64,000 bases of DNA from TPA_inf: Saccharomyces (taxonomy: Eukaryota). Numbering within the stretch: the stretch's first letter is position 1; the number at the start of each line of letters is the position of its first letter. Where the stretch lies: contig BK006947.3 in assembly GCA_000146045.2 (NCBI GenBank), positions 1 to 64,000 of the forward strand. The letters are read 5' to 3'. The notes beneath the pieces are model-generated. The model was not told where the DNA came from and did not search any database. It worked only from the letters and a program-made list of their open reading frames with translations. The translations under genes and the position numbers were made by a program. This document shows positions 371 to 18,000 of this stretch, one piece after another.

Positions 371-3300
371 TCACTCTCCAACTTCTCTGCTCGAATCTCT
401 ACATAATAATATATCAAATCTACCGTCTGGAACATCATCGCTATCCAGCTCTTTGTGAACCGCTACCATCAGCATGTACAGCGGTACCCTCGTGTTATCT
501 GCAGCGAGAACTTCAACGTTTGCCAAATCAAGCCAATGTGGTAACAACCACACCTCCGAAATCTGCTCCAAAAGATATTCCAGTTTCTGCCGAAATGTTT
601 TATTGCAGAACAGCCCTATCAGCATCGACAGGAATGCCGTCCAATGCGGCACTTTAGATGGGGTAACTCCCAGCGCAAGCTGATCTCGCAAGTGCATTCC
701 TAGACTTAATTCATATCTGCTCCTCAACTGTCGATGATGCCTGCTAAACTGCAGCTTGACGTACTGCGGACCCTGCAGTCCAGCGCTCGTCATGGAACGC
801 AAACGCTGAAAAACTCCAACTTTCTCGAGCGCTTCCACAAAGACCGTATCGTCTTTTGCCTCCCATTCTTCCCGGCACTTTTTTTCGTCCCAGTTCAAAA
901 AGTACTGCAGCACCTCTGTCTTCGATTCACGCAAGTTGCTCCATACTTTATAATACAACTCTTTGATCTGCCTTCCAGACATGCGGAAAACTTGGCTCCC
1001 TTGCTTGCCTCTTGTCGAATCCAATACACTAATTGTTTCTCTTCTTCTAGTAATGGCCAGGTACCAAGCATAATTTCTCTGTATCTGAGAGTAGATCTCT
1101 CCCCTTTTTACGCTAAAAAATTTCAAATACCCTACAGGGTCCCCATGATATGGCTCGATGTCTTCCAAGTATTCTTTGTATTCCTCGTCATTTCGCAGCA
1201 TTCTCTCCACAGCTAGTGCTTCCCAAGCCATCCTCCGATACGATACTTTCTGGCCAGCCCAACAGACACAGAGCTCGAACATCTTTTGACAGCCCTTGCA
1301 TAATCCGTATTGTGTGAATACTCCCTCTGGGCAGAAGTATACGTCAATACCATAGAGGAAAAGATGTTTAATTTCGTCAGACCGAAATCCAAGAAACTGT
1401 AAGACATTCATATTCTCGGAAGTATTGGGAAATTGTGCTTTCAGTTTCTTTCTCTCTAGCAAAACCATTTGACTCCCTTTCCGCTTATACGACTCTTTGT
1501 TAATGTCGGTGACTGGATGGAATCTATTATCCTCAGCATTGCCATCTTTATTGGCGTCCTCCTTGGCACTAGCGTTGGTACTTTCAGTGGTAGTGGCATT
1601 AGTGCTGGAGTTGGTGCTAGCAGTGGTAGTGGCATTAGTGCTGGAGTTGGTGCTAGCAGTGGTAGTAGCACTAGTGTTGGAGTCGGTACTTTCGGTGGTA
1701 GTAGCACTAGTGTTGGAGTCGGTACTTTCGGTGGTAGTAGCACTAGTGTTGGAGTTGGTACTTTCAGTGGTAGTCGCACTAGTCCTGACGTTGATGCTGG
1801 CAGTGGTAGTAGCACTAGTCCTGACGTTGGTGCTGGCAGTGGTAGTAGCATTAGTGCTGGAGTTGGTACTTTCAGTGGTAGTCGCACTAGTCCTGACGTT
1901 GATGCTGGCAGTGGTAGTAGCACTAGTCCTGACGTTGGTGCTGGCAGTGGTAGTAGCATTAGTGCTGGAGTTGGTAGTCGCATTGGTACTGGCATTAGCA
2001 CTACCATGAATGCACGTGTCGCTGTCCTCATCACTGCTGCAATACTTTCTGCACCTGTCACTGCTATTGCTCTCCTGGAAGCTAGACGGTAACGCAACGA
2101 TCGACATGGAAGCTGTCGCCTGTTTTTCAGCCAATCTGTCCATTCTTTCTATCAGTTCCACTGTGTCAGCAGACAGGTCTGTCCTGGAGCCACAGCATCC
2201 AACATGCTGGCCCTTTTTTCCTTTCTTTGATTCAAGTCCATAGAACTCGCGTACCTGTTCGGTTATACAGCCTTCCTTAATCGGTGGTAATTCACCCTTA
2301 CGATTCCTTGCCGCCCAACTGTTTTTTCTAGATAATAGATAACAGAGGCCCCCATCTCTTAGTCTCCCTACGCCTTGAATGAGCTCAATAATATTAAGTC
2401 TATTATCAAGCATGATCACCATCATCAATTGCTTAATGTCAATTCCTTCAGTCACTAATTTCGTTCCGATGAGAACTCGCATGCTACCGTCAGTGACAAA
2501 CTCCTTTGTGCGAGACACCTTTTCTGCAGCACCCAGCTTCCCGTGTATCCATACCACCCTAAAATACTTTCTCCAAGAGCAGGCCAATTCTTCCACTTCG
2601 TTGGTTGTGCTTGCAACTACAATGGCCTTCGACTCTGGTTCAATTTCAAAGAGGGCTAAAAGAAGCTTCAGTGCTTCTTCGGGCTGTGATTCCACTTTCT
2701 TCCAAATTTTATGAACATGCCCTAAAGGCACCTCGGATTTCTCCTTGATTAGATTAAACATCCGTGTTGGATAGCTGGATAGACCTCTGCTGAGATCTTC
2801 CGACCGTTTGAGCTCGTTGATGTCCATCGACTTCTTGGCCAGTCCCGTAAGCCCAATACGCTGCAACGCAGCATCAGCTACAGCCTCAGGTGCTGTGCCG
2901 CTCAAAAAGATTGCTTTCTCAAAAGCGTCAAAATCAAGGTTAGTTATGCCCCCAAATTGCGACTGCCGGTAGACCTCCGTTTCAAAGTTGTGAAACTCAT
3001 CTACAATGAGGTAACCCAATTTTACGTTGTTGGTCCTAAAGGTGCACTCAACAATATTCTCCCACGCAGCTATCCTGTCTGTGAAATTAGTGCTAGCAAG
3101 ATCATCGTAGATCCCCACGTATAAATCAGTAACGCCATCGCAACCTTCTTCAATAAAGTTTCTTACAGGGGCCACATTCAAGCAACCGCATCGGCTCAAC
3201 CTGATCATGCAATTAGCAAGCAACACTGTGTACGGTACAAACAGAAACGACACATATTTCACGTCGCCCTTAGACGCCAGTGCTATCAAGGGGAGATGAA

Positions 3301-6098
3301 ATAACTCCGTCTTACCATAGCCCGGTGGGGCCTGTACTGCCACAGAGGGTGTGTCTGCCATGTATATTTCATGACATAAGCGCAACTGATGCAAGTCCCT
3401 GAATTCAAAGGAGCTGCCAAAGAGTTTCTGGCCTGCGACGAGGATATCGTTTGTACTCTTGGGCTCTCGGGGCCTTTTTCGCGTTACTCTTGAAATTTTT
3501 TGATGATGATCTGAACTCGCCGCCTCACCTGCCACTACGTCTTCCGCATTCCGAGTACTAGAGAATGAACAATGGTAGTCGCTTTCAAGGCCTAACCATT
3601 GAATCCAGCGCTCGGAAGCTCGTTCCTGCAATAAAGTGGCGGTCGTCCCACTGACACTAGTTAACGAAAAGGAATCCACACCGTAAATATTTCGCCCTGT
3701 TTGAACGGAATGATTGGCCATGAGTTCACTCGTCGCCGACTCGTACAAATCTGTTTCAAATCTGCTACCTACGCAGTGCCGTCCTAGGGCAATCAACCCC
3801 TGACGCATCTCCCGAAAATTCAGCTTCTGAGGTGCATTCTTCGGAAGTTCCCTCATGTACTGCCGAAAAGTTGCGTATTCAACCAGACAGCCCTTCGCGG
3901 TATTCAGAAACATGTAGGAATACAAAACTATCCTCGAAATGTCTCGATTTGTTACTTGATCTGGATCCTCAAATCCCACCACATCCATCCAAGGATCATG
4001 ATTAAAAGCGTCATAACTGTTACCAAGCGCACATATTTGCATTTGCCTTAGCACAGTGACAAAATAAAACACGTAATCTGAAGTGAGTCCGTCAAGCGTC
4101 TTAAGTCGAGGCTCCGATGAACCGTTCTTGTTGTAATCAGTGTACAGTTGGATGCGTCTTGTTGTATCATCGACGTATACGTTGCGCTGAGGACCGGCAA
4201 AAGCGAGTAGCTGAAGCTCTGGATAACGGTAAGGGTATCCTACGGCAAAATGGATCATCCACATAAGTGGCACCGTAAGCTCGTCAATTGCAACAGTGAC
4301 TTTATTTTTAAGAGCCGCGGTCATTTTGTTAGTATCTCTTCTCAACTTGGGCAGCACAATTTCACGATATTTAACAGGTATCATTTGAAGGAAAGAATCG
4401 TTCTCCAGATACTCGTCAATTCCTCGCTTTGGCTCTCTGAACAAAACTTCTCGATTACGCAAAATGAGGCTGGCAATATCAACCACTGTAGGCATATAAA
4501 AGCAGTCGTTCAATTCTTCCCAAAGGTTATCAAACTGAGCCTTGCATGCAAAGTAAAAGCCGCGGACATACTCGCGATTAAACAGTTTTCCACATACTGA
4601 TACACCATCAGAAGAAGGTACCAAAGTTATTCTATAAGAGTCCTTCAGCGCGGTTTCCTGCGCTACTTCGTGGTACAGAATTTTGATCCATTTCCACATC
4701 GCAACGCCGTTGTTGTCATCAAATATATCTAAATCCCTTGCGGTACAAGCACAAGACGACACCAATAAAGCTTTCACGGCATCTAGTGTTTTTCTGAGTC
4801 TTCGTGGAGTGTTAGGACTGCGCAACTTACATACTTTCAAGCCATGCTCGTCCACAGAGGGAATAATGGGTTCTTCATTCGTAATGGATCGATCCTCTTC
4901 GTCACCAGCGCCACCACGGGGACCCGCCCCGAAATTGAGCGCACATGCTCGCAAGATAATATGCAAAATATCACCCAATCGGTCCTTTTTGTTCATCATA
5001 TCGTTACATATCTGTGAAAAGTACTTTATCTCAGTGGGTTTACGTGGGCATAGATCACGCTTCAGCCGCTCTGTGTCGACTTTCTTTTCGCCAGGTAAAC
5101 TTGCTTGGTATGCAGAAAAAATCGATAGCTCATCTACGTGTAGTAACAAAAACATGTAGGGTGCCAAATTGTATCCATATTTCCTTATGGTGCTTTTCTG
5201 AAGACCCCTTACAATAGGTGTGCCAGAAACAAAGTCAGTGAAAGTACGCATCGTAGAGCTGTCGTTCGGCCTGGCACTCGCTATTTCGTAACAACGTTCC
5301 AGGACACGGAAACTCAACTCATTATAGTATCCTCTGTTGAGGTAAAAAAGAGAAAGGGTATCGTAATCCTTTCTATTGAATTTCAAAGTATGCACTTGAA
5401 ACAACGTGTAGACCATCAAGTTGATTTTCTTGGGAATAAGATACTTTGAAGGGATTGGTCCGCCCTGGAAATCTGGTTCGTCTTCAACAAACGTCAGGAA
5501 CTTTTGTACATTTTTCCCGACCATGACGGAAACGACAATTTTTTCAAAAGACCTTTTCCTATCCATTGCACCAGTTCTGAATTTTACCACTTTGATTAGA
5601 CCAGACTTTTCGTCTTCGTAGAATGACCGCACTTCCGTGGGGATCGATTCAAATAAAGTTATTGAGGGACAATGTACCAAGTCGTTTTTGTTATTTAGAG
5701 CCGACTCAAACTCGTCAAAGTTTGCTTTTTCAAACTTACGCCTATCGGAAACTTTCATTTTATTTTTGTAAGTTTCGAAATTAACAATAGTATGTTGATT
5801 GTTATGCTTTTTGACAAGAAATCCATCAATATAAACAAAAGATTGTCCAGTTTCCGTCTTATCATCATCTAAGAATGTAATAATTAAGCTATTGAGAAGA
5901 TGCAGAATCTGCGCTATGCAGGTGCAAATCTCTAGCAGCAGCAAAGTAAATTCAGTTAGTAAGAAATCTCACTAAGATAAGCGACTGTCTGTCCCCTTCA
6001 AGCACAACATAGAAAGCAGAAGGATGTCTCATTCATCGCTTGATTTCCGGCCTGCAAAAATAAAGTAGTCGGTACGTACGTTCGTTTTCAATTTCCAT
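371..6098 (-). CDS. YRF1-6: Y'-encoded DNA helicase YRF1-6 (YNL339C), a spliced gene
   Basis: Exon 1 is 6098..6080 (ATGGAAATTGAAAACGAAC). The intron is 6079..5932, with 5'SS GTACGT, branch point TACTAAC (revcomp at 5955-5961) and 3'SS TAG. Exon 2 is 5931..371. The spliced protein starts MEIENEQICTCIAQ and carries DEAD/DEAH helicase motifs (GYGKTE, DEFH). The track ORF starts at a TTG at 5944. Confidence 0.9.
1565..2000. repeat. 36-bp minisatellite (~12 copies) inside the YRF1-6 C-terminal region, encoding Ser/Thr/Asn/Ala-rich 12-aa repeats
   Basis: Tandem units agtggtagtagcactagtgttggagtcggtactttc and variants. All three frames on both strands stay open across it, which produces the spurious overlapping ORFs in the track (1456-2097, 1469-2092, 1497-2009). 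Confidence 0.9.
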
Positions 6099-6616
6099 GG
6101 TGCACAGTATCTTAACTATCTGCTTAGTCGAGGAGAACCAGGATTCTGTTCGTTGCTCAGCCGCTTCGTGGATATTCTCTTGGATACTTTAAATATGGAC
6201 CTACGCTTAGCCTGCGCTTAGCCTACAACTTCTTCCGCTCTCGAAAAGACCAATATAATAGAAAGTTATAAATTACATTTCCTTATTAGGTATACGACCT
6301 CGCGCTTCGAAGTAGAGGAGCCCTTTTTGGCGTACCTACATATGGCGCGTCAGACAGACAAACTTCCCCCAAAAATGTATTACCCCGCCGAATAAGAAAA
6401 CAGACCCATTCACCCACGACGTATCAAGTTACTTCCTTGGTGCAATGTCCCACTATAAAAAAATTCCTTGACGCTAGATCGTTGGACTAAAATCTGCGTC
6501 ACAATCGCCTAAACAGGAAATATTGCCTATTTTCGTACAAGGTTACTTCCTAGATGCTATATGTCCCTACGGCCTTGTCTAACACCATCCAGCATGCAAT
6601 ACAGTGACATATATAT

Positions 6617-6693
6617 ACCCACACCCACACCCACACACCACACCCACACACCCACACCACACCCACACCCACACACCCACACCCACACCCATC
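6617..6693. repeat. Interstitial telomeric repeat tract (C1-3A/TG1-3) between Y' and X
   Basis: cccacacccacacaccacacccacacacc..., with a degenerate tail ccctaaccctaccctattctaaccct reaching to ~6726. Confidence 0.9.
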
Positions 6694-7428
6694 ACAACCC
6701 TAACCCTACCCTATTCTAACCCTGATGAACGTGTCTCTCAACTTACCCTCCATTACCCTACCTCCCCACTCGTTACCCTGCCCCACTCAACCATACCACT
6801 CCCAACCACCATCCATCACTCTACTTACTACTACCATCCACCGCCCATCATAACCGTTACCCTCCAATTACCCAAATCCAACTCTACTACCATTACCCTA
6901 CCATCGACCATCTGCTACTCACTATACTGTTGTTCTACCCTCCATATTGAAACGTTAACAAATAATCGTAAATAATACACATATACTTACCCTACCACTC
7001 TAATCCCACTACCACATGCCATACTCACCTTCACTTGTATTCTGATCGGTCATACGTACACGGATGCTACAGTATATACCATCTCAACTTACCCTGCCAT
7101 AACATTCCACTCCACTCCATGGCCCATCTCTCACTAAATCAGTACCAAATGCACCCACATCATTATGCACGGCACTTGCCTCAGCGGTCTATACCCTGTG
7201 CCATTTACCCATAACTCCCACGATTATCCACATTTTAATATCTATATCTCATTCGGCGGCCCCAAATATTGTATAACTGCTCTTAATACATACGTTACAC
7301 CACTTTTACACCGTATACTAACCACTCAATTTATATACACTTATGCCAATATTACAAAAAAATCACCACTAAAATCACCTAAACATAAAAATATTCTATT
7401 CTTCAACCATAATACATAAACACACTCA
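6694..7428. repeat. X element: subtelomeric repeats (STR, ~6694-6960) followed by the X core (~6960-7428)
   Basis: It sits centromere-proximal of the internal TG tract. It is AT-rich with no credible ORF (only dubious YNL338W/YNL337W-type frames) and has an ACS match at 7380-7390. The boundaries are approximate, from memory of TEL14L ending near 7428. Confidence 0.6.
7380..7390 (-). promoter_or_regulatory. ARS consensus sequence (ACS) in the X core
   Basis: Plus strand taaacataaaa is the reverse complement of TTTTATGTTTA, which matches WTTTAYRTTTW. Confidence 0.5.
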
Positions 7429-8329
7429 ATTGCGTATCAATACCACCATGACGTCATTAACTTAAATGTTCCTTAATACGTCATACCACTATGCTCTATT
7501 CCATATATTGTAATATAACTGTACTCTATAGTCATACAGACGCTTTTACTTCACCCCATCTTCTCATACTATTGTCATAGAATCTCACACTGACGCATGA
7601 TTAAAACGAATAATTTTTACTGTAAGGGCTGCCATCCGCGCTCTATCCTTTTGTTTGCAATATTTATATACAGAATCTCAAAACAAGCGGGAGAAGTGCT
7701 AATTACCCAGAGGTCATGCATAATCTGAGTACCACCGTACCTCTAGGTTTTGCTTTGATCCGTTTTACAGTGACACCGAACATAAGGGGAAGCTATTGAC
7801 ATGGTATCGAAAGGTTGTCCACATTGGGAAGTAACTTGGTTCTATGAATCTTCATGTCAGATACGTAGGACAGACTCTTCCTGTGTAAATATTTGTGACA
7901 GCTACGTCTATTTTCTACTAGATGTTTACACAGTTTTGTCACAGGAAATCTACGCTTAAAATATGTATTTCATTCAAGCGGTAACCGCTGTACGAGCAGT
8001 GACATTGCTGGTCGCACCTTAAATGTAAACCAACGTTACGGCACACCGTGATGTACCCGCATTAAAGTTTTGTAAATTCGTTATTACGATTATCGAGTTG
8101 GCTAGATAGAAAACCGGAAATGAAATGGATGCCCTTTTCGAATAGCTGAGTTTCTTTGCCTAAAATAGCCCAATATTGTTTCCCTTTTTCTATCACGAGG
8201 TTACTGAGCCATTGCATGAACGCGCGCGCCTCGGCGGCTTTTTTTTTCTGCTGTGCTGTATAAAAGCGAAAAGCCAGAAGTTACTATCTCGAATAAAAAA
8301 CCCCTCGAACTGCCATCTCACTACCGAAA

Positions 8330-9475
8330 ATGAAAGAGAATGAACTTAAAAATGAGAAGAGTGTAGATGTATTATCCTTCAAACAGCTCGAATCCCAAAA
8401 GATTGTTCTACCTCAAGATCTTTTCAGAAGCAGCTTTACCTGGTTTTGTTATGAAATTTACAAGTCCTTAGCGTTTCGCATCTGGATGCTATTATGGCTA
8501 CCACTTAGCGTCTGGTGGAAACTTTCCAACAATTGTATTTACCCACTTATAGTTTCACTTCTGGTCCTGTTTCTGGGACCAATATTTGTCCTTGTTATTT
8601 GTGGACTTTCTCGTAAGCGTTCCTTATCGAAACAACTCATTCAGTTTTGCAAAGAGGTTACTGAAAACACACCAAGTTCTGATCCTCATGATTGGGAAGT
8701 TGTTGCAGCAAATCTAAATTCGTACTTATATGAAAATAAGGCTTGGAATACTAAGTACTTTTTCTTCAATGCCATGGTCTGTCAAGAAGCGTTCAGAACA
8801 ACCCTTCTCGAACCATTTTCTTTGAAAAAAGACGAAGCTGCCAAGGTTAAGTCATTTAAGGATTCCGTCCCTTACATTGAAGAAGCATTGGGAGTTTATT
8901 TTAGAGAAGTTGAAAAACAATGGAAGTTGTTTAATTCTGAGAAATCATGGAGCCCTGTTGGCCTGGAAGATGCTAAACTTCCCAAAGAAGCTTACCGATT
9001 TAAGCTTACTTGGTTTTTAAAGAGGATTTCCAATATTTTTATGTTGATACCATTCCTTAATTTTTTGTGCTGCATATATGTGTCACGGGGAATGTGCCTT
9101 CTATTACGCACCTTTTATCTCGGGTGGATTCTTTTCATGTTGGTACAAGGTTTCCAAAACATGAGGATGATCGTTTTATCCGTGAAAATGGAACACAAGA
9201 TGCAGTTCTTGTCGACTATTATAAATGAGCAAGAAAGTGGTGCGAATGGATGGGACGAAATTGCAAAAAAAATGAATAGGTACTTGTTTGAGAAAAAAGT
9301 CTGGAAGAATGAAGAGTTTTTCTTTGACGGGATTGACTGTGAATGGTTTTTTAGCCACTTCTTCTACCGCGTTCTCTCTGCAAAGAAATCTATGCGGGCT
9401 CTATCATTGAATGTGGAACTATGGCCATATATTAAAGAAGCGCAATTATCCTGCAGTGAGGAGTCCTTAGCGTAA
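8330..9475 (+). CDS. COS1: COS family subtelomeric membrane protein COS1 (YNL336W), 381 aa
   Basis: ATG at 8330. The protein MKENELKNEKSVDVLSFKQLESQ... has multiple TM segments and a TATA (tataaaagc) at ~8260. Confidence 0.9.
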   Translation: MKENELKNEKSVDVLSFKQLESQKIVLPQDLFRSSFTWFCYEIYKSLAFRIWMLLWLPLSVWWKLSNNCIYPLIVSLLVLFLGPIFVLVICGLSRKRSLSKQLIQFCKEVTENTPSSDPHDWEVVAANLNSYLYENKAWNTKYFFFNAMVCQEAFRTTLLEPFSLKKDEAAKVKSFKDSVPYIEEALGVYFREVEKQWKLFNSEKSWSPVGLEDAKLPKEAYRFKLTWFLKRISNIFMLIPFLNFLCCIYVSRGMCLLLRTFYLGWILFMLVQGFQNMRMIVLSVKMEHKMQFLSTIINEQESGANGWDEIAKKMNRYLFEKKVWKNEEFFFDGIDCEWFFSHFFYRVLSAKKSMRALSLNVELWPYIKEAQLSCSEESLA

Positions 9476-10747
9476 AGATAAATACAACTTTTTCAATTTA
9501 TATATTTTGTAGTTTGTCAGCTGCGAATAACCAAAACGAGACTACTTTTTACCATTACAACCATTTTCTTTTTCCCTATTTCTCACTGGTTGACAGAAAT
9601 CAGTGTGCTATCATCCTACCATATGCGCTAAACTTATTGTCTTTCTCCTCCTAGAGATGCTGTATTCCATGCATATTCTGAACGATGGGTTGGTGTTTTT
9701 ATCAAGCAAGGTTAATCACATGGCGTGGCTTGCTCCACACATCAGTAGAAAACGCATACCGCAGCGGAATCCTTAAATAATAAGTGATTTTACTGTTCAT
9801 CAACTACAATCGGACTCTTTCACAATTACCCTTCTTGTTTTCCACATTTACTGTTAAATGAAGGGATGTACAGAAGGCTTAGGAAAACCTGTGCTGAATA
9901 CTGGATGGACACTGCATTCCCACAGTGAAACTTTTATAGATACACTGTCAGTTATTTTCGAACTTTCATCAAGTTGCTGAGTTTTAGTATCCCTTTGCCT
10001 TAGCTATATGTTTGAATGAGCAAAATATTTGCAATGTCTCTAGCTTTCTTGAAATATTGGTTTATATTGAGGGCTTGGTAAGATTTCAAATTTCACTTTG
10101 AAATACTCAGGAGAAAAATCATGCTCTTTTGATAATTTGGTGACTAAACATACATAAAACAGTTTAATTTTGGGTGGTAATGGCTGTGTGACTAGCTATA
10201 GAAAGAAAAAAATTAAAAAAAAAAAAAAAAATCAAGTAGTTCCTGCACTGCGACGTCCATTATAGCATTATGAATTGGTCCCTGATTTACGCATGCGATA
10301 AACTATTTTTAGCGCAGCCGCATATTATCCGAGAATAACTTCCGACATAAGAAAATTCGCAGAAAATAGATAAAAAACTGCTCTTGGCATTCTTCACTTC
10401 CTCTATTACACACTGTGTCATACCACAATCATCTCACAGTATGTATTTGTATGTTTATACATGCTATAACGTAAAACAATGTAGAATATATATCTAAATA
10501 CCTCACGGTTTTAGTTTAGTGCAGCCCACATACTACTTTTTTCCTTTTGTTTTTTTTTATATTTCAAAGGTTAAACTCGCTTAGACTATGTCTATAATAT
10601 AAAAAAAAAAATAGCTCTATTCCGTTTCTTTTATTCTATTTGATATTTCCATCACACTTTCATCTTAATCACGGATGTATACTGATAATAGGGTTGACTG
10701 CGCCTGTACGGATTACAGTGCCCTCTTCAATTGGAAAATCCAAGCTT

Positions 10748-11107
10748 TCAAGATGCGTAACTGTTATTCAAAGGATCCTCTAAGATAAAACACAGATCGG
10801 CAGATCCGAGAGTTGGCTTCTGTGCCTTGGGCTCAAATTCCTTTCCCACCTCATTCAAATTGATTTTTCTGACTCCAAAAAAAGACAAAGCCCTGCGATA
10901 GTTCCCGAATGTTGTAACATCAAAGCCAAGCACTCCTTTATAGAAGTCGCATGAACGTTGAATACTAGCAGCTGGTGAAACTACAGGGTCTAAACTAACT
11001 AGTATCCATATCGTTTTGAGAGCATTGAAAGTATACGGAGTACAAGCTGGGTTAGAAGGAATTTTTATCTTAACAGCAATGAAAATCAACTTTCTAGACT
11101 GAATCCC
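10748..11107 (-). pseudogene. Degenerate VOC/glyoxalase-fold-like reading frame with no ATG (possible gene relic)
   Basis: The open frame runs 11107..10751 and contains ...VVSPAASIQRSCDFYKGVLGFDVTTFGNYRRALSFFGVRKINLNE...GSADLCFILED. This fits the beta-alpha-beta-beta-beta VOC pattern (h.V.D...S..FY..vLGF). The frame has no ATG: the track's M is a TTG. A +1 shift after the stop gives 28 more codons (HLESLDFPIEEGTVIRTGAVNPIISIHP). Confidence 0.3.
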
Positions 11108-11451
11108 TCAAGAAAATTGCAAAAGACTAACCGATACTGGTTTAAAAGAGAAAGATGTCAAATATGCGGAGTTATACCATCAAACAACTTTGGACGGCCC
11201 CGAAACAAATGTCCGCAAAAAAGATCTTATTAAAGTGCATGGACACTATCATTTCTATAATACAAAATACTCCACCGCACAATAGTTTGTCGGGAAGTCA
11301 TCAATCAATCTTGTACGAGCTTTACAAATAACTTTTTAGGATCGGTCCCCTCATAAAATTATATATAAATGGGTTAGTTTCCTTCTTCTTCTGTTAACAT
11401 GAAGTTGCTTCGTACTGTTTTTTGCCTTGCTCCTCTTCAAAAGAATCAATC

Positions 11452-12129
11452 ATGTCACAGTACGGATTTGTAAGAGTTCCTAGAGAGGTAGAAAAGGCCA
11501 TTCCAGTGGTGAATGCACCTAGACCACGGGCCGTTGTTCCGCCTCCAAACAGTGAAACTGCTAGGCTTGTTCGGGAATATGCCGCTAAAGAATTGACTGC
11601 CCCCGTTCTAAACCACTCTTTGCGTGTTTTTCAATATAGTGTAGCTATCATAAGAGACCAATTTCCAGCATGGGACTTGGATCAGGAAGTTTTGTACGTC
11701 ACCTGCTTACTTCATGATATTGCAACAACAGATAAGAATATGAGAGCCACGAAGATGTCATTTGAGTATTATGGTGGCATACTTTCAAGGGAGCTTGTAT
11801 TTAATGCGACAGGTGGAAATCAGGACTACGCAGATGCAGTAACTGAGGCCATCATTCGTCACCAGGATTTGACTGGGACTGGCTACATTACCACCTTGGG
11901 GCTCATTCTGCAGATTGCTACTACGCTTGACAATGTCGGATCCAATACCGATCTGATTCATATCGATACAGTTAGTGCCATTAACGAGCAATTTCCAAGA
12001 CTGCACTGGTTATCATGTTTTGCTACGGTGGTGGACACTGAAAACTCGAGAAAACCGTGGGGCCACACCAGTTCTTTGGGTGATGATTTTTCAAAGAAAG
12101 TCATATGCAATACATTTGGGTATAACTAA
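11452..12129 (+). CDS. DDI3: Cyanamide hydratase (HD domain) DDI3 (YNL335W), 225 aa
   Basis: ATG at 11452 (MSQYGFVRVPREVEK...). The track ORF starts 30 nt upstream at a TTG. It is near-identical to paralog DDI2 on chromosome VI. Confidence 0.9.
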   Translation: MSQYGFVRVPREVEKAIPVVNAPRPRAVVPPPNSETARLVREYAAKELTAPVLNHSLRVFQYSVAIIRDQFPAWDLDQEVLYVTCLLHDIATTDKNMRATKMSFEYYGGILSRELVFNATGGNQDYADAVTEAIIRHQDLTGTGYITTLGLILQIATTLDNVGSNTDLIHIDTVSAINEQFPRLHWLSCFATVVDTENSRKPWGHTSSLGDDFSKKVICNTFGYN

Positions 12130-12207
12130 ATAGGTAAGTTTCAATGAGGCGAGTTCAGAATGAACAGTGATGATCTCCTTTCTCCATAACTATACTATAC
12201 GTCCCTT

Positions 12208-12876
12208 TTATTTACTGTAGTTTTTAAGAACAAATTCTCTGATGAACCAGTCGTGAAACCGTATATCGTTTTCTGCCAATTCCGGATGAAATGATGTCGC
12301 AAGAATATTGTTTTTTTGCTTAGCGGCAACAATTAGTTCTTGACCACCATTATCCTTCCCATCTAATTTGTACAGGACCTGCACATGTTCAGGATCCAGC
12401 ACCTCTTCTATTACTGGGGCTCTTATAAAAGTAGCAGGAAAATCATTGCAGTGAGGAATAAAGTTTGAAAAGTCGCAAATCCGGGTAGAAGACTGAGCTT
12501 GTCTCCCAAATGCATTTCTTTTTACTTTAACCTTTAGTAAATTCAGCGTCTTGACCAGTTTTTCTTCGTTAGATAATTGTTGTGAAATATAAATCATACC
12601 TGCACAAGTACCCCAGGTTACCTTGCTTGGGTTGTGTACGAATGCGTAGAGATCGTCGTAAAATCCTGTTCTTTCTGCAATAAGGGACATTGCAGTCGAC
12701 TCTCCCCCAGGTATGATCAATGCATCACATTGAGCTAGTTGATTTTTATCCTTCACTGTCATCACAGATAGTTTTTTTTCATAGAAATCCCTGTTTTCGA
12801 CGATGCATTTTTCTACGTGTCGCACATGTTCAATGAACGCACCCTGTAATGCCAAGACTCCGATAACGACGGTCAT
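12208..12876 (-). CDS. SNO2: PLP synthase glutaminase subunit (PdxT/SNO family) SNO2 (YNL334C), 222 aa
   Basis: ATG at 12876 (MTVVIGVLALQGAFIEH...). The protein has a class I glutamine amidotransferase motif (GTCAG) and is divergent from SNZ2. Confidence 0.9.
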   Translation of the reverse strand: MTVVIGVLALQGAFIEHVRHVEKCIVENRDFYEKKLSVMTVKDKNQLAQCDALIIPGGESTAMSLIAERTGFYDDLYAFVHNPSKVTWGTCAGMIYISQQLSNEEKLVKTLNLLKVKVKRNAFGRQAQSSTRICDFSNFIPHCNDFPATFIRAPVIEEVLDPEHVQVLYKLDGKDNGGQELIVAAKQKNNILATSFHPELAENDIRFHDWFIREFVLKNYSK

Positions 12877-13266
12877 TTTTGAGATATTACTCTTGTCTTG
12901 GCCCCAGCAACCGGGGTCATGGTAAGTGTGCTTGCTACTCAAACAGAAAAAAATGGGCTTTTATCAATGAATAACTTTTTTTTTTTGTAGCTGAATGATG
13001 AAAGATGGCTCAACTATTCTTACAGTTTCCAATAAAGTGACGCGCCGCCCAATGGCATAACAGTAGTAGGCACATTATATCGTTTGAATGGCAAAATGTT
13101 GTGGCAAGGAAAGATCAGAATTATTTGTTCATGTGGAATGAATTTCACACACACACACACACATATATAAAACTAGTATGTTTCTCCACCATAGTCACAT
13201 TATTATTCGACCCTTCTAGGAAAGGAACTATAATAGAAAAATAAGTATATCGTAAAAAAGACAAAA
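12877..13266. promoter_or_regulatory. Shared bidirectional SNO2/SNZ2 promoter
   Basis: A 390-bp divergent intergenic region containing a T-run (12974-12985), a (CA)8 microsatellite (13147-13162) and a TATA (atatataaaa, ~13163). Confidence 0.6.
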
Positions 13267-14163
13267 ATGTCAGAATTCAAGGTTAAAACTGGGCTTGCCC
13301 AAATGTTAAAGGGCGGTGTGATTATGGACGTCGTCACACCTGAACAGGCTATTATCGCAGAAAGAGCGGGCGCTTGTGCTGTAATGGCATTGGAACGCAT
13401 TCCAGCTGACATGCGCAAGTCTGGCCAAGTATGCCGTATGTCAGATCCTCGCATGATCAAAGAAATTATGGAAGCTGTTTCAATTCCGGTGATGGCAAAG
13501 GTCCGTATTGGACACTTCGTGGAGGCACAGATCCTGGAAGAGCTGCAAGTAGACTACATTGACGAAAGCGAGGTTTTGACTCCAGCTGATTGGACACATC
13601 ACATTGAGAAGCATAACTTCAAGGTGCCATTTGTTTGCGGTGCCAAGGATCTAGGTGAGGCTTTGAGAAGAATAAACGAAGGTGCTGCAATGATCCGTAC
13701 CAAAGGTGAAGCAGGTACCGGTGACGTTTCCGAGGCCGTCAAGCACATCACCAAGATTAAGGCGGAGATCCAGCAGTATAAAGAGAATTTGAAGACCGAA
13801 TCCGATTTTGCAGCTAAGGCCACAGAATTACGCGTCCCTGTCGACTTGCTGAAGACAACACTATCAGAGGGAAAGCTACCTGTAGTCAATTTTGCTGCTG
13901 GTGGAGTTGCTACTCCAGCAGACGCTGCTCTATTGATGCAATTGGGTTGTGAAGGTGTTTTCGTCGGTTCAGGTATATTCAAATCGTCAGATCCTGAGAA
14001 GTTAGCATGTGCTATTGTTGAAGCCACGACTCACTACGATAATCCAGCAAAACTGTTGCAAATTTCCAGCGATTTGGGTGACTTGATGGGTGGTATTTCC
14101 ATCCAATCAATTAATGAAGCAGGAGGCAAAAACGGTGCAAGACTTTCTGAAATCGGATGGTAG
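13267..14163 (+). CDS. SNZ2: PLP synthase subunit (PdxS/SNZ family) SNZ2 (YNL333W), 298 aa
   Basis: [28 protein letters not shown]..., a TIM-barrel PdxS. The paralog assignment (SNZ2 rather than SNZ3) comes from the chromosome XIV flanking genes. Confidence 0.9.
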
Positions 14164-14831
14164 AACTAGCGATGCTCACACAACGCTAATTTGTTTCCTT
14201 CGAAGGGGCAGTCGGCTATTGTAGTTTCTATATATTATGTAGCACAACATGGAAACCATATTCAGCCAGTTTGTATATATGAGAATTAAACGTTAAAACT
14301 TTTTCATCCTATCAGTCTTACACATTGGCCTTGCTAAAGGGCACAATCGTTCACGTATATACATATGTATGTTTACGTATATATATATGTGTTTACAAAT
14401 ATGCATGTATATTCTTTTCGAGGAAGATTATTATATGCTATTAGGCGATGAGTCGGCTTAATTTTTTAGGGGGACGAGATTGGCGCGTTAGTGCATAAAG
14501 ACAGCAAATCACCTGGAGGTGACAACATTAATGCATTTATCGGTTTTTGGCTATGATGCAATGAGTACAGTTCCAATTGAACGGCTCATGAACTATGAAA
14601 TATACGAATTATTCAACTAGCAGAAGGCTTGAAATATTACTTATTCAGATTATGAAAATGGTGCTGTTATAGCAAAATAAGCAACATCAATCTCTTGCGA
14701 CGACAGCAAACAAAACATATAAAAACCTCGTATTATCATCTTCATGAACAATATTCTTGTCCATTCTTTCGTTCTTTTACCTTTTCAATTTTATAAAAAT
14801 ACCACAACAACAATAAACACACTTCCAAGCT

Positions 14832-15854
14832 ATGTCTACAGACAAGATCACATTTTTGTTGAACTGGCAACCAACCCCATACCATATTCCAATTTTCTTG
14901 GCTCAAACCAAAGGTTACTTCAAGGAGCAAGGTCTAGACATGGCCATCCTAGAACCAACCAATCCTTCCGATGTCACTGAGTTAATTGGATCTGGTAAGG
15001 TCGACATGGGTTTGAAAGCCATGATTCACACCTTGGCTGCCAAGGCCCGTGGTTTCCCAGTGACCTCTGTTGCCTCTTTGTTGGACGAACCATTTACCGG
15101 TGTCTTGTACTTAAAGGGCAGTGGTATCACTGAAGACTTCCAGTCCCTAAAGGGTAAGAAGATCGGTTACGTTGGTGAATTCGGTAAGATCCAAATCGAT
15201 GAATTGACCAAGCACTACGGTATGAAGCCAGAAGACTACACCGCAGTCAGATGTGGTATGAATGTCGCCAAGTACATCATCGAAGGTAAGATTGATGCTG
15301 GTATTGGTATCGAATGTATGCAACAAGTCGAATTGGAAGAGTACTTGGCTAAGCAAGGCAGACCAGCTTCTGATGCTAAGATGTTGAGAATTGACAAGTT
15401 GGCTTGCTTGGGTTGCTGTTGCTTCTGTACCGTTCTTTACATCTGCAACGATGAATTTTTGAAGAAGAACCCTGAAAAGGTCAGAAAGTTCTTGAAAGCC
15501 ATCAAGAAGGCAACCGACTACGTTCTAGCCGACCCTGTGAAGGCTTGGAAAGAATACATCGACTTCAAGCCTCGATTGAACAACGATCTATCTTACAAGC
15601 AATACCAAAGATGTTACGCTTACTTCTCTTCATCTTTGTACAATGTTCACCGTGACTGGAAGAAGGTTACCGGTTACGGTAAGAGATTAGCCATCTTGCC
15701 ACCAGACTATGTCTCGAACTACACTAATGAATACTTGTCCTGGCCAGAACCAGAAGAGGTTTCTGATCCTTTGGAAGCTCAAAGATTGATGGCTATTCAT
15801 CAAGAAAAATGCAGACAGGAAGGTACTTTCAAGAGATTGGCTCTTCCAGCTTAA
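14832..15854 (+). CDS. THI12: HMP-P synthase, THI5 family (THI12, YNL332W), 340 aa
   Basis: [25 protein letters not shown]..., including the CCCFC motif ([16 protein letters not shown]). It is near-identical to THI5/THI11/THI13. Confidence 0.9.
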
Positions 15855-16117
15855 ACGTGCTTCGTCACTCGTTCAGCCCAGCCTTCCTCTACGACTTGTT
15901 TATGATTTCACATTAGCTGTTGTTTCCTACTCGATATATAGACATACATATTTACGTATCAGAGCATGTATACAAGCTTTAAATGAACTTCGTTTATCTT
16001 AACACTTTATTTCCTTGCAAAATTTGCACACACTCGGTGGATAAGGCAACTGCGTATAATTTGTAGCTTCTTTTCAAAATATAGTAGATGGATATTAACA
16101 TAAAATAATCACTTTAA

Positions 16118-17248
16118 CTAATTGTCAAAAGCTATCCTGGCAGACATCGATGTGAGGGGTGAAAGCTTCTTGGTTACCGCTGGGTCATCTCCTATTAAAC
16201 TTTTGGGAAAGCCAACATCAAAAGGAACAATACTTTCCAGGTATTCTATTTGTTCCGGTGTTAATTTAATACTCAAAGCCTCAATGTTCTGCTTGAGATG
16301 TTCAATTTTCCTTCCTCCAATCAATGGGAAAACATTTTTCGCTTTAGAGCGAACATAGGCAATAGCGATAGCAGTAACAGACTCTGTTCCATGTTCCTCA
16401 GCAATTTTAGTCAATGCTTCGCTGATTTTAACCTCCAATTCTGTTTGTTCGGGGCCACCCACAAAAGTACGCAGACCCTCTCCATTCTTCTTCCGTTCTT
16501 CCATTGCTTTTTTACTCTGAAATCTTCCACCTCCCATGACATCCCATGGGGCTAGAGCCATACCAAAATGCCTAGCCATTGGAATAATATCACGCTCAAA
16601 GTCCCTGTTCAATACATTCCATTTACCTTGATAGACGCTAAAAGGAGTTTTACCATGAGATGTAGCGTAGTAATTTGCCGCAGAAACAACCCAAGCAGGT
16701 GTATCAGATACTCCTAAATATAGGACCTTGCCCTGCTGAACTAAAATATGCAAACTATCCATAACTTCTTCGATTGAACTCATATAATCCCACCAGTGAA
16801 TGTAAAGTATATCAATCCAATCAGTTTGCAATTTGCGGAGAGAATCCCTCACACTCACATGTAAACTACGCTTGTGATTACCACAGTAGTTGGCACTTTT
16901 ACCACCACCTACTTCATACTTCTTATAATCTCCGGTAAACTTGGTGGCAATTACAATCTGGTCACGCAGTTTTCTTGATGCCATCCATTCACCTATCCAA
17001 ATCTCTGACTCTTCATTTTGGTAACTGTTTGCAGTATCAATACAATTACCTCCAGCTTCATAAAAAGCATCAAGAAGTTCAAAGGCCTGTTCCTTATTCA
17101 TAGAGCCCATAAAGCCTGACCATGCGTCGCCGATTGAAGCTCCTCCCAGAATTAGCGGTGAAACCCTTATGCCGGCAGTTTTAGAAAGAACCCTGAGACG
17201 TCCCAATTCGGTAGGTGGTTCAGGTAGAGGTTTAAACAAGTCAGTCAT
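16118..17248 (-). CDS. AAD14: Putative aryl-alcohol dehydrogenase (aldo-keto reductase) AAD14 (YNL331C), 376 aa
   Basis: ATG at 17248 ([21 protein letters not shown]...). The track ORF begins 24 nt upstream. Confidence 0.9.
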
Positions 17249-18000
17249 GCTGAATAGTGGTTTTTTATGCAATAGACAATATGTTAAGTAAAATACAAAG
17301 CCGTTCAGCTAATTGGTTAGCTAGTTAATGAAGAGAAGAACAGCATGCATCCTTGACTTGGAAATATTGTCATACTTAAATATGGTTGGAAATTTTGCCC
17401 CCCGGTTTCCTTGAATACGAACAATGCAACTTATTTGAGTCTTCGTACGAGATCTGCTTACTGGTTTTGTACAGCGCTGAAAGCGAATTTGAAAATATAT
17501 GCAATTAGAAGAGAGTGAATCAGATGAGGATAGGGTTAATACTGTAAAATTATTACCAAATATTGAATGACATATAAAAGTCGTAGTAACCGAATTTGTT
17601 TTTTATTATGAATAAAGACTTCTTGTTTTCGCATACTTCGATGATTTAAGAAATTAAAAGTCATTTACCCAGGCGTGATTATAAATTATATTGGCACCGC
17701 TTTATCAACAGCGGTGGGACGAGACGTTTAGATAGTAATTACAATAGAAATACAACTGTTTCAATATTAAAATATCTCTAGTATGTAAATAACACATATA
17801 GGCAATTTTCTTCGAAACGTATGGGACGCGGTTGATGTATGAACGGAACGCATCAATTAAAGGTTTGAGAAAAGTCTTTTGCAAAAAAATTGAGTTTGCA
17901 CTTCTCATACACAATTGGATAGCGTCTTAAGTGCCTTTTATTCACTTTTCTTCTTTTGTTTCACATTATTTATATTCGTATATACTTCCAACTCTTTTTT

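Follow-up and report, generated by a model that had tools for sequence, protein, structure and literature searches.

Introduction

Human GLOD5 (PDB 3zw5) and Salmonella STM3117 (3hnq/3huh) are single-domain vicinal-oxygen-chelate (VOC) proteins of about 125-147 amino acids. The only member of their family to have been assayed is PA0880 (RdoPA) of P. aeruginosa, a 2-hydroxyparaconate lactonase that is 59.7% identical to Rdo1 of the Ustilago maydis itaconate cluster (PMC9875883). A remnant of a related gene has been catalogued in yeast as SACE0Np2 (chromosome XIV, 10637-10995, complementary strand), together with an identical duplicate, SACE0Fp2, upstream of DDI2 on chromosome VI (8730-9088, complementary strand) (Lafontaine and Dujon, 2010, BMC Genomics 11:260; PMC2876123). 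SACE0Np2 was found by similarity to the D. hansenii gene DEHA2E07282g, described as 'similar to a bacterial glyoxalase' and PA0880-like, and was interpreted as a bacterial-type glyoxalase gene that was acquired horizontally and decayed afterwards; other hemiascomycetes were reported to lack the gene, and the transfer was placed in the ancestor of the S. cerevisiae strains (PMC2876123).

The neighboring DDI genes have a popular, strongly inducible promoter. A binding consensus for Fzf1, CS2, has been mapped to -229..-190 of DDI2, and an upstream repressing region (URS) of DDI2/3 to -709..-229; the URS is covered by nucleosomes and its deletion de-represses DDI2/3 (Du et al., 2026, bioRxiv 10.64898/2026.05.06.723303). 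The pseudogene is not mentioned in that preprint. Here we describe the relic beside DDI3 in the first 64,000 nucleotides of S. cerevisiae chromosome XIV (hereafter the window). We report intact VOC genes in two further species, S. paradoxus (at the syntenic position) and S. uvarum, as well as in S. cerevisiae strain CQI_4a, and find that the mapped DDI2/3 URS coincides with the old promoter of the relic together with its 5' part.

A full-length VOC pseudogene lies divergent from DDI3

DDI3, the cyanamide hydratase gene, occupies 11452..12129 on the plus strand (100% identical to protein cluster P0121, whose homologues are named cyanamide hydratase). On the minus strand from 11110, a TGA stop (11110-11108) is followed by an ATG-free frame, ...LVSLDPVVSPAASIQRSCDFYKGVLGFDVTTFGNYRRALSFFGVRKINLNEVGKEFEPKAQKPTLGSADLCFILEDPLNNSYAS, which ends at a stop at 10750-10748 and which the open reading frame listing records as a TTG-initiated ORF of 113 amino acids (10748..11089). 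The adjacent minus-strand frame carries on with THLESLDFPIEEGTVIRTGAVNPIISIHP and a stop. An earlier note made from the sequence alone had described the ATG-free frame with its TTG start, the stop at 11108-11110 and the continuation in the neighboring frame, and these are all visible in the translation and the listing. Its restriction of the feature to the first half-domain of a VOC gene did not hold: the third minus-strand frame contains the remainder of the gene (SVYIRD, a stop, then DESVMEISNRIK) and the original ATG persists at 11009-11007, also in the third frame (MDTS followed by a stop), so that the relic is full length and includes both beta-alpha-beta-beta-beta modules. The absence of an ATG is thus correct for the 113-codon frame but not for the gene, whose ancestral start survives out of frame.

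The relic comprises ~127 codons spread over three reading frames. It extends on the minus strand over 10617..11009, from the ancestral ATG to the first stop of the final frame (TAG, 10619-10617), bounds that are slightly wider than those published for SACE0Np2. At its 5' end ATG GAT ACT (11001..11009), the first three codons including the start, is retained, with a +1 insertion near 11002 as the first frameshift. Frame segment 1 (LVSLDPVV...EDPLNN, 10764..11000) encodes the linker as well as the first beta-alpha-beta-beta-beta module. Loss of 2 nt between 10763 and 10762 then leads into segment 2, (V)THLESLDFPIEEGTVIRTGAVN (10692..10763), and a further 2-nt loss between 10691 and 10690 into segment 3 (10617..10691), which reads IISVYIRD, stop, DESVMEISNRIKETE, stop. 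The call for the whole relic is based on three-frame translations, DNA alignments with intact copies, tblastn, a full-length PDB match and the PMC2876123 entry. We conclude, with a probability of about 95%, that this is an unprocessed pseudogene derived from a 127-amino-acid GLOD5/STM3117/PA0880-type VOC enzyme gene and the same object as the published SACE0Np2. The earlier note had taken both this locus and its chromosome VI counterpart to be unannotated; both have been in the catalogue since 2010, to which the pseudogene call itself adds nothing. A pseudogene beside DDI3 is ordinary and already known; its regulatory afterlife is modestly interesting.

The relic belongs to the GLOD5/STM3117/PA0880 subfamily

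The frame-repaired translation (121 amino acids) matches GLOD5 (3zw5, E=2.8e-31) and STM3117 (E=2e-27) end to end, aligning to positions 28-145 in the GLOD5 chain, which has 147 residues, and to 24-141 in STM3117, with only one gap, of a single residue; for the intact S. paradoxus-type protein the corresponding values are 1.4e-43 and 3.7e-43. By homology to these solved structures, two tandem beta-alpha-beta-beta-beta modules are predicted to span the whole relic domain. At E<=1e-10 there are 494 homologues, the intact ones carrying PF00903, which together with the PDB matches bears out the VOC/glyoxalase fold originally proposed. The signature residues of the subfamily lie in LDHLVLTV, KINLHE.G.EFEPKA, GSADLC, RTGA and S.Y.RDPD.NLIE, and the relic keeps the family residue in 43 of 54 columns that are >=90% conserved among 116 homologues, the other 11 being changed. 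The relic descends from the GLOD5/STM3117/PA0880 subfamily but is not a functional member; unlike the intact GLOD5 and STM3117 proteins, it is disabled. PA0880, at 127 amino acids, equals the intact yeast proteins in length, a likeness drawn from the catalogue link and length. The Rdo1 gene is located in an itaconate cluster, whereas the yeast VOC gene lies beside cyanamide hydratase and outside any itaconate cluster.

Profile searches of the relic were less decisive. Pfam PF00903 scored 19.6 bits against a gathering cut-off of 20.6 (E about 1e-3), and an NCBIfam search of the relic returned nothing relevant, so the family assignment rests on the pairwise and PDB matches and on the intact orthologues, of which P0001, P0002, P0006 and P0007 all have a precomputed PF00903 match. 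When an intact homologue was compared with the 64-kb window by tblastn, the first segment matched with E=5.7e-36, the sole such locus in the window. A weak second match at 50561-50761 lies inside a 763-amino-acid ORF and was discarded as chance. An Rfam scan of 10200-11500 gave nothing credible.

Intact VOC genes in S. paradoxus, S. uvarum and one S. cerevisiae isolate

S. paradoxus CBS432 contains intact 127-amino-acid ORFs divergent from DDI3 at two loci. A VOC ORF of this strain is located at about 12403-12783 of CP020255.1. On its chromosome XIV (L014, 5183-5563, minus strand) the ORF is located between COS and DDI3, 437 bp from and divergent to the latter, just as the earlier note had anticipated for an intact syntenic ORF in this species. 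An S. paradoxus contig (L011) likewise has a minus-strand VOC ORF of 127 amino acids at 692-1075, 437 bp from DDI, and L018 holds a second intact S. paradoxus VOC-DDI pair. The order VOC(-)/DDI(+)/SNO/SNZ in L011 and L014 is collinear with window positions 10225-14453, and the relic is 83% identical in DNA to the intact syntenic S. paradoxus ORF. Neither of the CBS432 VOC ORFs is among the genes called on those records. Two intact VOC genes thus seem to be unannotated in the S. paradoxus reference, a gap that we attribute to annotation transferred from a species in which the gene is dead. The check in S. uvarum was borne out in part, the gene being present and intact there but away from any DDI gene.

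Strain CQI_4a of S. cerevisiae carries a 12-unit tandem array of the VOC gene in which 10 copies are intact. The array was resolved by repeat search and ORF scan; Tandem Repeats Finder missed it, the period being >500. The main text of the ScRAP paper mentions neither CQI nor glyoxalase. Apparent synteny of P0001 with a DUP/COS gene on contig L008 was rejected, as this contig is a chimera joined at Nextera adapters (7-43, 661-698 and 1620-1638). The intact orthologues in S. paradoxus, S. uvarum and CQI_4a imply that the gene is older than S. cerevisiae and that S. cerevisiae is not uniformly without an intact copy. The gene is intact in S. paradoxus and S. uvarum and in 10 amplified copies of one S. 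cerevisiae isolate, and the published inference of an entry confined to the S. cerevisiae lineage, and of a dead gene in every strain, has to be revised.

Disabling lesions and relaxed constraint in the S. cerevisiae relic

DNA alignments with three intact genes revealed the lesions +1, +3, -2 and -2, a CCA->TAA nonsense change and the loss of the stop codon (TAA->GAA); the single frameshift originally suggested is therefore three, accompanied by a nonsense codon, within what is indeed a decayed VOC gene. The +1 insertion follows codon 3, where the relic has an extra base relative to the CQI_4a and S. uvarum copies and shows the same gap against S. paradoxus. The 3-nt insertion at 10881-10883 is in frame and yields LSFFG in place of LTFG. 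At 10667-10665 an in-frame TAA stands where the intact genes have CCA and strain CPS has TCA, and the ancestral stop position (10628-10626) now reads GAA. Changed invariant residues include DH, L, T and N-L: the invariant His of segment 1 is lost (LDH to LDP), L, T and V of strand 1 are altered, NLH has Asn in place of its His, and GNLIE has S-V in place of N-L. Substitutions on the relic lineage are evenly distributed over the three codon positions (13/11/9), and the intact lineages show an excess at third positions (S. uvarum 17/11/42, CQI 6/4/11). The relic is thus under relaxed selective constraint and carries disabling mutations.

Both copies in strain CPS (L012, L013) share every indel with the S288C relic, and CPS retains TCA and CAT where S288C has TAA and CCT. 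CPS and the seven strains examined in the 2010 paper contradict an origin of the lesions in reference sequencing errors.

Two readings would deny that the feature is a dead gene. The VOC resemblance could be fortuitous similarity within promoter DNA, the outcome that the earlier note itself had named as fatal to its proposal, and the marginal PF00903 score would fit; we give this practically no credence, as it is refuted by the tblastn match, the full-length match to 3zw5, the 83% DNA identity to a live syntenic S. paradoxus ORF and the conserved residues retained. Alternatively, a functional VOC protein might still be made by non-ATG initiation coupled to programmed frameshifting or readthrough. 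A TTG-initiated 113-codon frame is available for this and 80% of the conserved residues remain, but three separate frame changes and a TAA would need to be bypassed, substitutions on the relic branch are even over codon positions, invariant residues including the LDH His are gone, and the S. cerevisiae copies show further independent decay, all of which make such expression highly improbable. We conclude that the S288C locus is a pseudogene that yields no VOC protein; a non-coding transcript or a short peptide may still arise from the 113-codon TTG frame.

The comparisons show the homology, the lesions, the synteny, the relaxed constraint and the overlap of coordinates with the URS, and from them we infer an order of events; any contribution of the relic sequence itself to regulation would likewise be inferred. 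Before S. cerevisiae and S. paradoxus diverged, their ancestor would have possessed an intact VOC gene head-to-head with DDI across ~440 bp of shared intergenic DNA. Coding constraint would then have been lost in the S. cerevisiae lineage, with accumulation of the three frameshifts, the 3-nt insertion and the replacements of invariant residues, and duplication of the subtelomeric COS-DDI-SNO-SNZ block from one chromosome end to another probably took the dead copy with it. The nonsense codon and the His-to-Pro change would have been gained afterwards in the S288C lineage. What is left of the gene now does no more than provide DNA upstream of DDI3: two-thirds of the relic, on its 5' side, and the former promoter lie within the nucleosome-covered repressing region, and CS2 lies within the old shared promoter.

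The 5' part of the relic and its former promoter overlap the DDI2/3 repressing region

The relic and DDI3 are separated by 442 bp (11010..11451), collinear with the 437 bp between VOC and DDI in S. paradoxus, and each VOC copy of the CQI_4a array is also preceded by the 270 bp that adjoin the VOC gene. The region 11010..11451 is the present DDI3 promoter and, by sequence comparison, served as the ancestral VOC promoter. CS2 (TGGACACTATCATTTCT) is located at 11240..11256 on the plus strand, at -212..-196 of DDI3 and about -235 of the relic ATG, and is the sole match in 64 kb, where 0 are expected by chance. It is identical at both S. paradoxus loci and is kept both in the VOC-only units of the CQI_4a array, with one mismatch, and in DDI-only units (L015-L016). 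Upstream of the S. uvarum VOC genes outside a DDI context (L004, L009, L010), no CS2 was found at <=2 mismatches, only a bare TGATAG core; this leaves VOC genes as general Fzf1 targets without independent support.

The URS coordinates were mapped on DDI2 and were carried to DDI3 (ATG at 11452) on the assumption that the two promoters are identical, for which the exactly matching positions of TATA and CS2 speak, as does the published identity of the two relics. The TATA box (11364-11369) is at -88..-83, agreeing with Du et al. (2026; bioRxiv 10.64898/2026.05.06.723303). The URS equivalent in the window is 10743..11223, consisting of 267 bp of the 5' part of the relic and 214 bp of former promoter. 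More than half of the mapped 480-bp repressing region of the DDI2/3 promoter is thus a dead gene, and the rest is its old promoter.

This overlap invites a reading that is compatible with pseudogene status, namely that the relic and former promoter have been exapted to hold DDI2/3 tightly off, as a functional upstream repressing element, until chromatin is remodelled in an Fzf1-dependent manner. Exaptation would explain retention of the relic in all DDI2/3-type loci; the strongest URS effect is at the -2 nucleosome (-415..-269, window 11037-11183), and the VOC-proximal part of the promoter is the best conserved segment between S288C and CPS (99.1%). However, it is in the relic body that S. cerevisiae copies are conserved least (96.9%), and the same DNA in S. 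paradoxus is a live gene. DDI paralogues from other S. cerevisiae strains (L015-L017) lack all sequence upstream of -244, the relic included, and the relic is therefore dispensable for keeping a DDI gene. The preprint found no sequence-specific repressor sites and favors nucleosome occupancy, so the relic may be passive filler. On balance we consider exaptation unlikely. Also tentative, and less likely than not, is the proposal that VOC and DDI were ancestrally a divergent pair on one bidirectional Fzf1/CS2 promoter, with intact VOC co-induced with DDI and its corpse constituting the URS in S. cerevisiae; the exact CS2 at both S. paradoxus loci, the presence of CS2 in VOC-only as well as DDI-only units and the coincidence of the mapped URS with the relic are compatible with it. 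If this proposal is true, VOC in S. paradoxus and in the CQI_4a array would be co-induced by cyanamide or MMS as part of the same chemical-stress detoxification response, and a dead VOC gene would be the nucleosomal repressing region behind the unusually high fold induction of DDI2/3.

Relatives of the yeast VOC gene

Like other S. cerevisiae subtelomeric pseudogenes in duplicated blocks, the relic is located ~10 kb from the end of its chromosome, was probably already inactive when duplicated and is kept as a pseudogene across strains. Unlike them, it is without any intact paralogue in the reference, and by similarity its nearest relatives outside Saccharomyces are bacterial. The best matches after Saccharomyces are from Paenibacillus and other bacteria, 65-72% identical to the intact yeast proteins, which nearly equals the identity between S. 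uvarum and S. paradoxus (73-79%). In a ranking by similarity, the top 120 homologues include no non-Saccharomyces fungus. A literature search combining GLOD5 with yeast subtelomere was without result. Also bearing on the proposed horizontal acquisition, vertebrate GLOD5 and U. maydis Rdo1 are members of the family too. For the GLOD5 family, which is poorly understood, the intact yeast genes provide a eukaryotic entry point.

Reading frames and family of the relic

The relic lies on the minus strand between a COS/DUP gene at 8330-9475 (+), a span that matches COS1 on chrXIV, and the divergent cyanamide hydratase gene DDI3 at 11452-12129 (+), itself followed by a SNO gene at 12208-12942 (-) and a SNZ gene at 13267-14163 (+). 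Since the COS1 span and the catalogued pseudogene position (chrXIV 10637-10995 C) both fall at the same numbers here, positions in the window are those of S288C chromosome XIV. Translation of the minus strand revealed the ATG-free frame that the earlier note had described, which follows a TGA opening at 11110 and runs to ...EDPLNNSYAS* (stop 10750-10748), as well as its continuation in a second frame as THLESLDFPIEEGTVIRTGAVNPIISIHP*. The proposed extent held for these two pieces and missed a third frame, which contains SVYIRD*DESVMEISNRIK and, further upstream, an ATG at 11009-11007 (MDTS*). A small VOC protein of full length results when the three segments are put end to end.

The joined 121-aa translation matched human GLOD5 (3zw5; E=2.8e-31) and Salmonella STM3117 (E about 2e-27) end to end, and a tblastn search of the 64-kb window with an intact homologue found the locus at E=5.7e-36. 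The resemblance to the VOC fold is thus confirmed beyond chance; Pfam PF00903 scored slightly below threshold (19.6 bits; cut-off 20.6). The same tblastn search gave no second credible VOC locus in the window, and a weak similarity at 50561-50761 (-) (28% over 78 aa, E=0.005), located inside a 763-aa ORF, was judged to be chance.

The relic is a dead gene

Lesions were defined by DNA alignment of the relic with the intact genes of S. cerevisiae CQI_4a, S. uvarum and S. paradoxus. A +1 insertion is located at about 11002, right behind codon 3; a 3-nt in-frame insertion at 10881-10883 produces LSFFG versus LTFG in the intact genes; 2-nt deletions fall between 10763 and 10762 and between 10691 and 10690; and a CCA codon is changed to TAA at 10667-10665. 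Because the ancestral stop has been lost (TAA to GAA, 10628-10626), the last frame ends at a TAG at 10619-10617. The suspected frameshift decay is therefore borne out by three frame changes (+1, -2 and -2) together with the TAA.

Substitutions found only in the relic when S. uvarum serves as outgroup are distributed 13/11/9 over codon positions 1/2/3. Purifying selection is expected to leave a third-position excess, and the intact lineages display one (S. uvarum 17/11/42, CQI 6/4/11). The relic retains 43 of the 54 positions that are at least 90% conserved in 116 intact homologues; among the 11 lost are the LDH motif's invariant His and the N-L of GNLIE. A gene decoded in some unusual fashion was considered and rejected on the basis of the lesions, the even spread of substitutions and the lost conserved residues. 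We conclude that the relic is a dead gene.

Prior description and possible origin

The relic is an ordinary subtelomeric pseudogene that was already known. The earlier note was aware of no gene annotated at this site or at its chrVI counterpart, which presumably holds for the standard gene annotation. The literature, however, contains SACE0Np2 at Sace0N (chrXIV) 10637-10995 C (Lafontaine and Dujon, 2010; PMC2876123), a position that coincides exactly with the relic. SACE0Np2 was picked up by its resemblance to D. hansenii DEHA2E07282g, itself described as 'similar to a bacterial glyoxalase' and as PA0880-like, and has an identical duplicate, SACE0Fp2, at chrVI 8730-9088 C; both were described as horizontally acquired and secondarily pseudogenized, with pseudogenized homologues in the seven further S. 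cerevisiae strains surveyed and the gene described as missing from the rest of the hemiascomycetes (PMC2876123). The same catalogue lists SACE0Np1, a small YHL048C-A-like pseudogene at window 7584-7720 (PMC2876123). What is added here is modest: intact, apparently unannotated S. paradoxus orthologues, an array in CQI_4a and an overlap with the DDI2/3 regulatory region.

Among the top 120 matches to the intact yeast proteins, the best from outside Saccharomyces were bacterial (Paenibacillus and relatives, 65-72% identity), nearly as close as the Saccharomyces VOC proteins are to one another (73-79%), and no non-Saccharomyces fungus was present. This pattern agrees with the published proposal of horizontal transfer (PMC2876123), which we grade as no more than plausible because the family also includes Rdo1 of U. 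maydis and vertebrate GLOD5. The one family member with an assay in the literature covered, the 127-aa PA0880 of P. aeruginosa, is a 2-hydroxyparaconate lactonase that shares 59.7% identity with Rdo1, encoded in the itaconate cluster of U. maydis (PMC9875883); by analogy, its activity offers a lead to a candidate function for the yeast enzyme.

Intact genes in S. paradoxus, S. uvarum and S. cerevisiae CQI_4a

Intact Saccharomyces homologues of 127-128 aa were returned by protein search. A search with DDI3 reached a contig from a synthetic yeast community (L011; PRJNA245328) on which a VOC gene at 692-1075 (-) is followed by DDI at 1513-2190 (+), SNO (-) and SNZ (+). The contig aligns collinearly to window 10225-14453, with 78.6% identity across VOC-DDI and 83.3% across SNO-SNZ, and its DDI is tied to S. 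paradoxus Ddi3 by cluster membership. S. paradoxus CBS432 carries an intact 127-aa VOC ORF (L014 5183-5563 (-); CP020255.1 about 12403-12783), divergent and 437 bp from the chrXIV DDI3, thereby providing the intact syntenic ORF that had been proposed as a check. A second intact 127-aa S. paradoxus ORF (L018 5183-5563 (-); CP020251.1) is divergent from a Ddi3 gene on another chromosome. Since both ORFs are missing from the gene calls of their NCBI records and the 90%-identity protein cluster of these ORFs has no NCBI member, the S. paradoxus reference genes seem to be unannotated. The intact copy of S. uvarum occupies another subtelomeric setting, flanked by DAK-like and DUF1349 genes. The published view of the gene as confined to S. 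cerevisiae and dead there needs revision. A COS-VOC adjacency on a public metagenome contig (L008) was dismissed as an artefact, in which three fragments are fused at Nextera adapters (7-43, 661-698 and 1620-1638).

S. cerevisiae CQI_4a contains 12 tandem units of 1231-1236 bp that are 99-100% identical (L002 about 3140-17800; GCA_029990785.1, contig CANCOQ010000002.1, about 798-813 kb of 821 kb), in a subtelomeric position adjoining MAL32-, PAU- and COS-like genes. The VOC ORF is intact and identical in ten units; the other two carry frameshifts that may be assembly errors. A TG1-3-like (telomere-like) tract abuts the VOC promoter in each unit, and the array resembles Y'-type amplification. 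It shows that strong amplification of an intact version is possible within S. cerevisiae.

Timing of inactivation

Strain CPS of S. cerevisiae carries a relic copy (L012/L013 7176-7549) that has every indel in common with the window relic. The CPS COS-relic-DDI-SNO-SNZ block adjoins THI-, AAD- and PhyH-type genes, neighbours that point to a different chromosome end. The shared indels imply that the frameshifts either arose before the block dispersed across S. cerevisiae subtelomeres or became uniform through gene conversion. CPS has TCA (Ser) in place of the S288C TAA, and CAT (His) in place of the S288C CCT (Pro), so decay is continuing. Identity to S. paradoxus is 83.0% for the relic, 87.5% for DDI3 coding sequence and 69-78% for flanking non-coding DNA; a value between coding and non-coding fits inactivation partway down the S. 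cerevisiae branch.

Overlap with the DDI3 promoter and repressing region

The relic and DDI3 point away from each other, their ATGs 442 bp apart. The Fzf1-binding consensus CS2 (TGGACACTATCATTTCT) occurs at 11240-11256, its sole match in the 64-kb window, and the DDI3 TATA box at 11364-11369; these positions agree with those reported for DDI2 (CS2 within -229..-190, TATA at -88..-83; bioRxiv 10.64898/2026.05.06.723303). The upstream repressing region (URS) was mapped to -709..-229, where nucleosomes -2 to -4 are evicted Fzf1-dependently, in a preprint that does not mention the pseudogene (bioRxiv 10.64898/2026.05.06.723303). In window terms the URS is 10743-11223, comprising 267 bp of relic coding sequence and 214 bp of its former promoter. 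On these coordinates the mapped URS and the relic region coincide; that the relic sequence itself matters for repression we consider unlikely.

In S. paradoxus, CS2 is exact between VOC and DDI at both loci; in the CQI_4a array, where DDI is lacking, it occurs with one mismatch upstream of every VOC copy. From these sites, the live S. paradoxus VOC gene may be regarded as a candidate Fzf1 target, a reasonable idea that we rate at less than even odds. No CS2-like site is present upstream of the S. uvarum, L009 or L010 VOC genes. A motif GAATG(T/A)CTGATAGC, which is no CS2 match, is common to S. uvarum (L004 9489) and the Saccharomyces-like L009 (3517) and L010 (1226), upstream of VOC genes that do not adjoin DDI.

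Among the S. cerevisiae DDI paralogues L015-L017, L015-L016 carry CS2 exactly and L017 lacks an exact copy. All three are homologous to the window only from 11208 (-244) onward, and have neither the relic nor any of the mapped URS. These paralogues, from strains with a paradoxus-like DDI such as BCN, represent a natural promoter-truncation variant in which the TATA position is retained downstream of -244.
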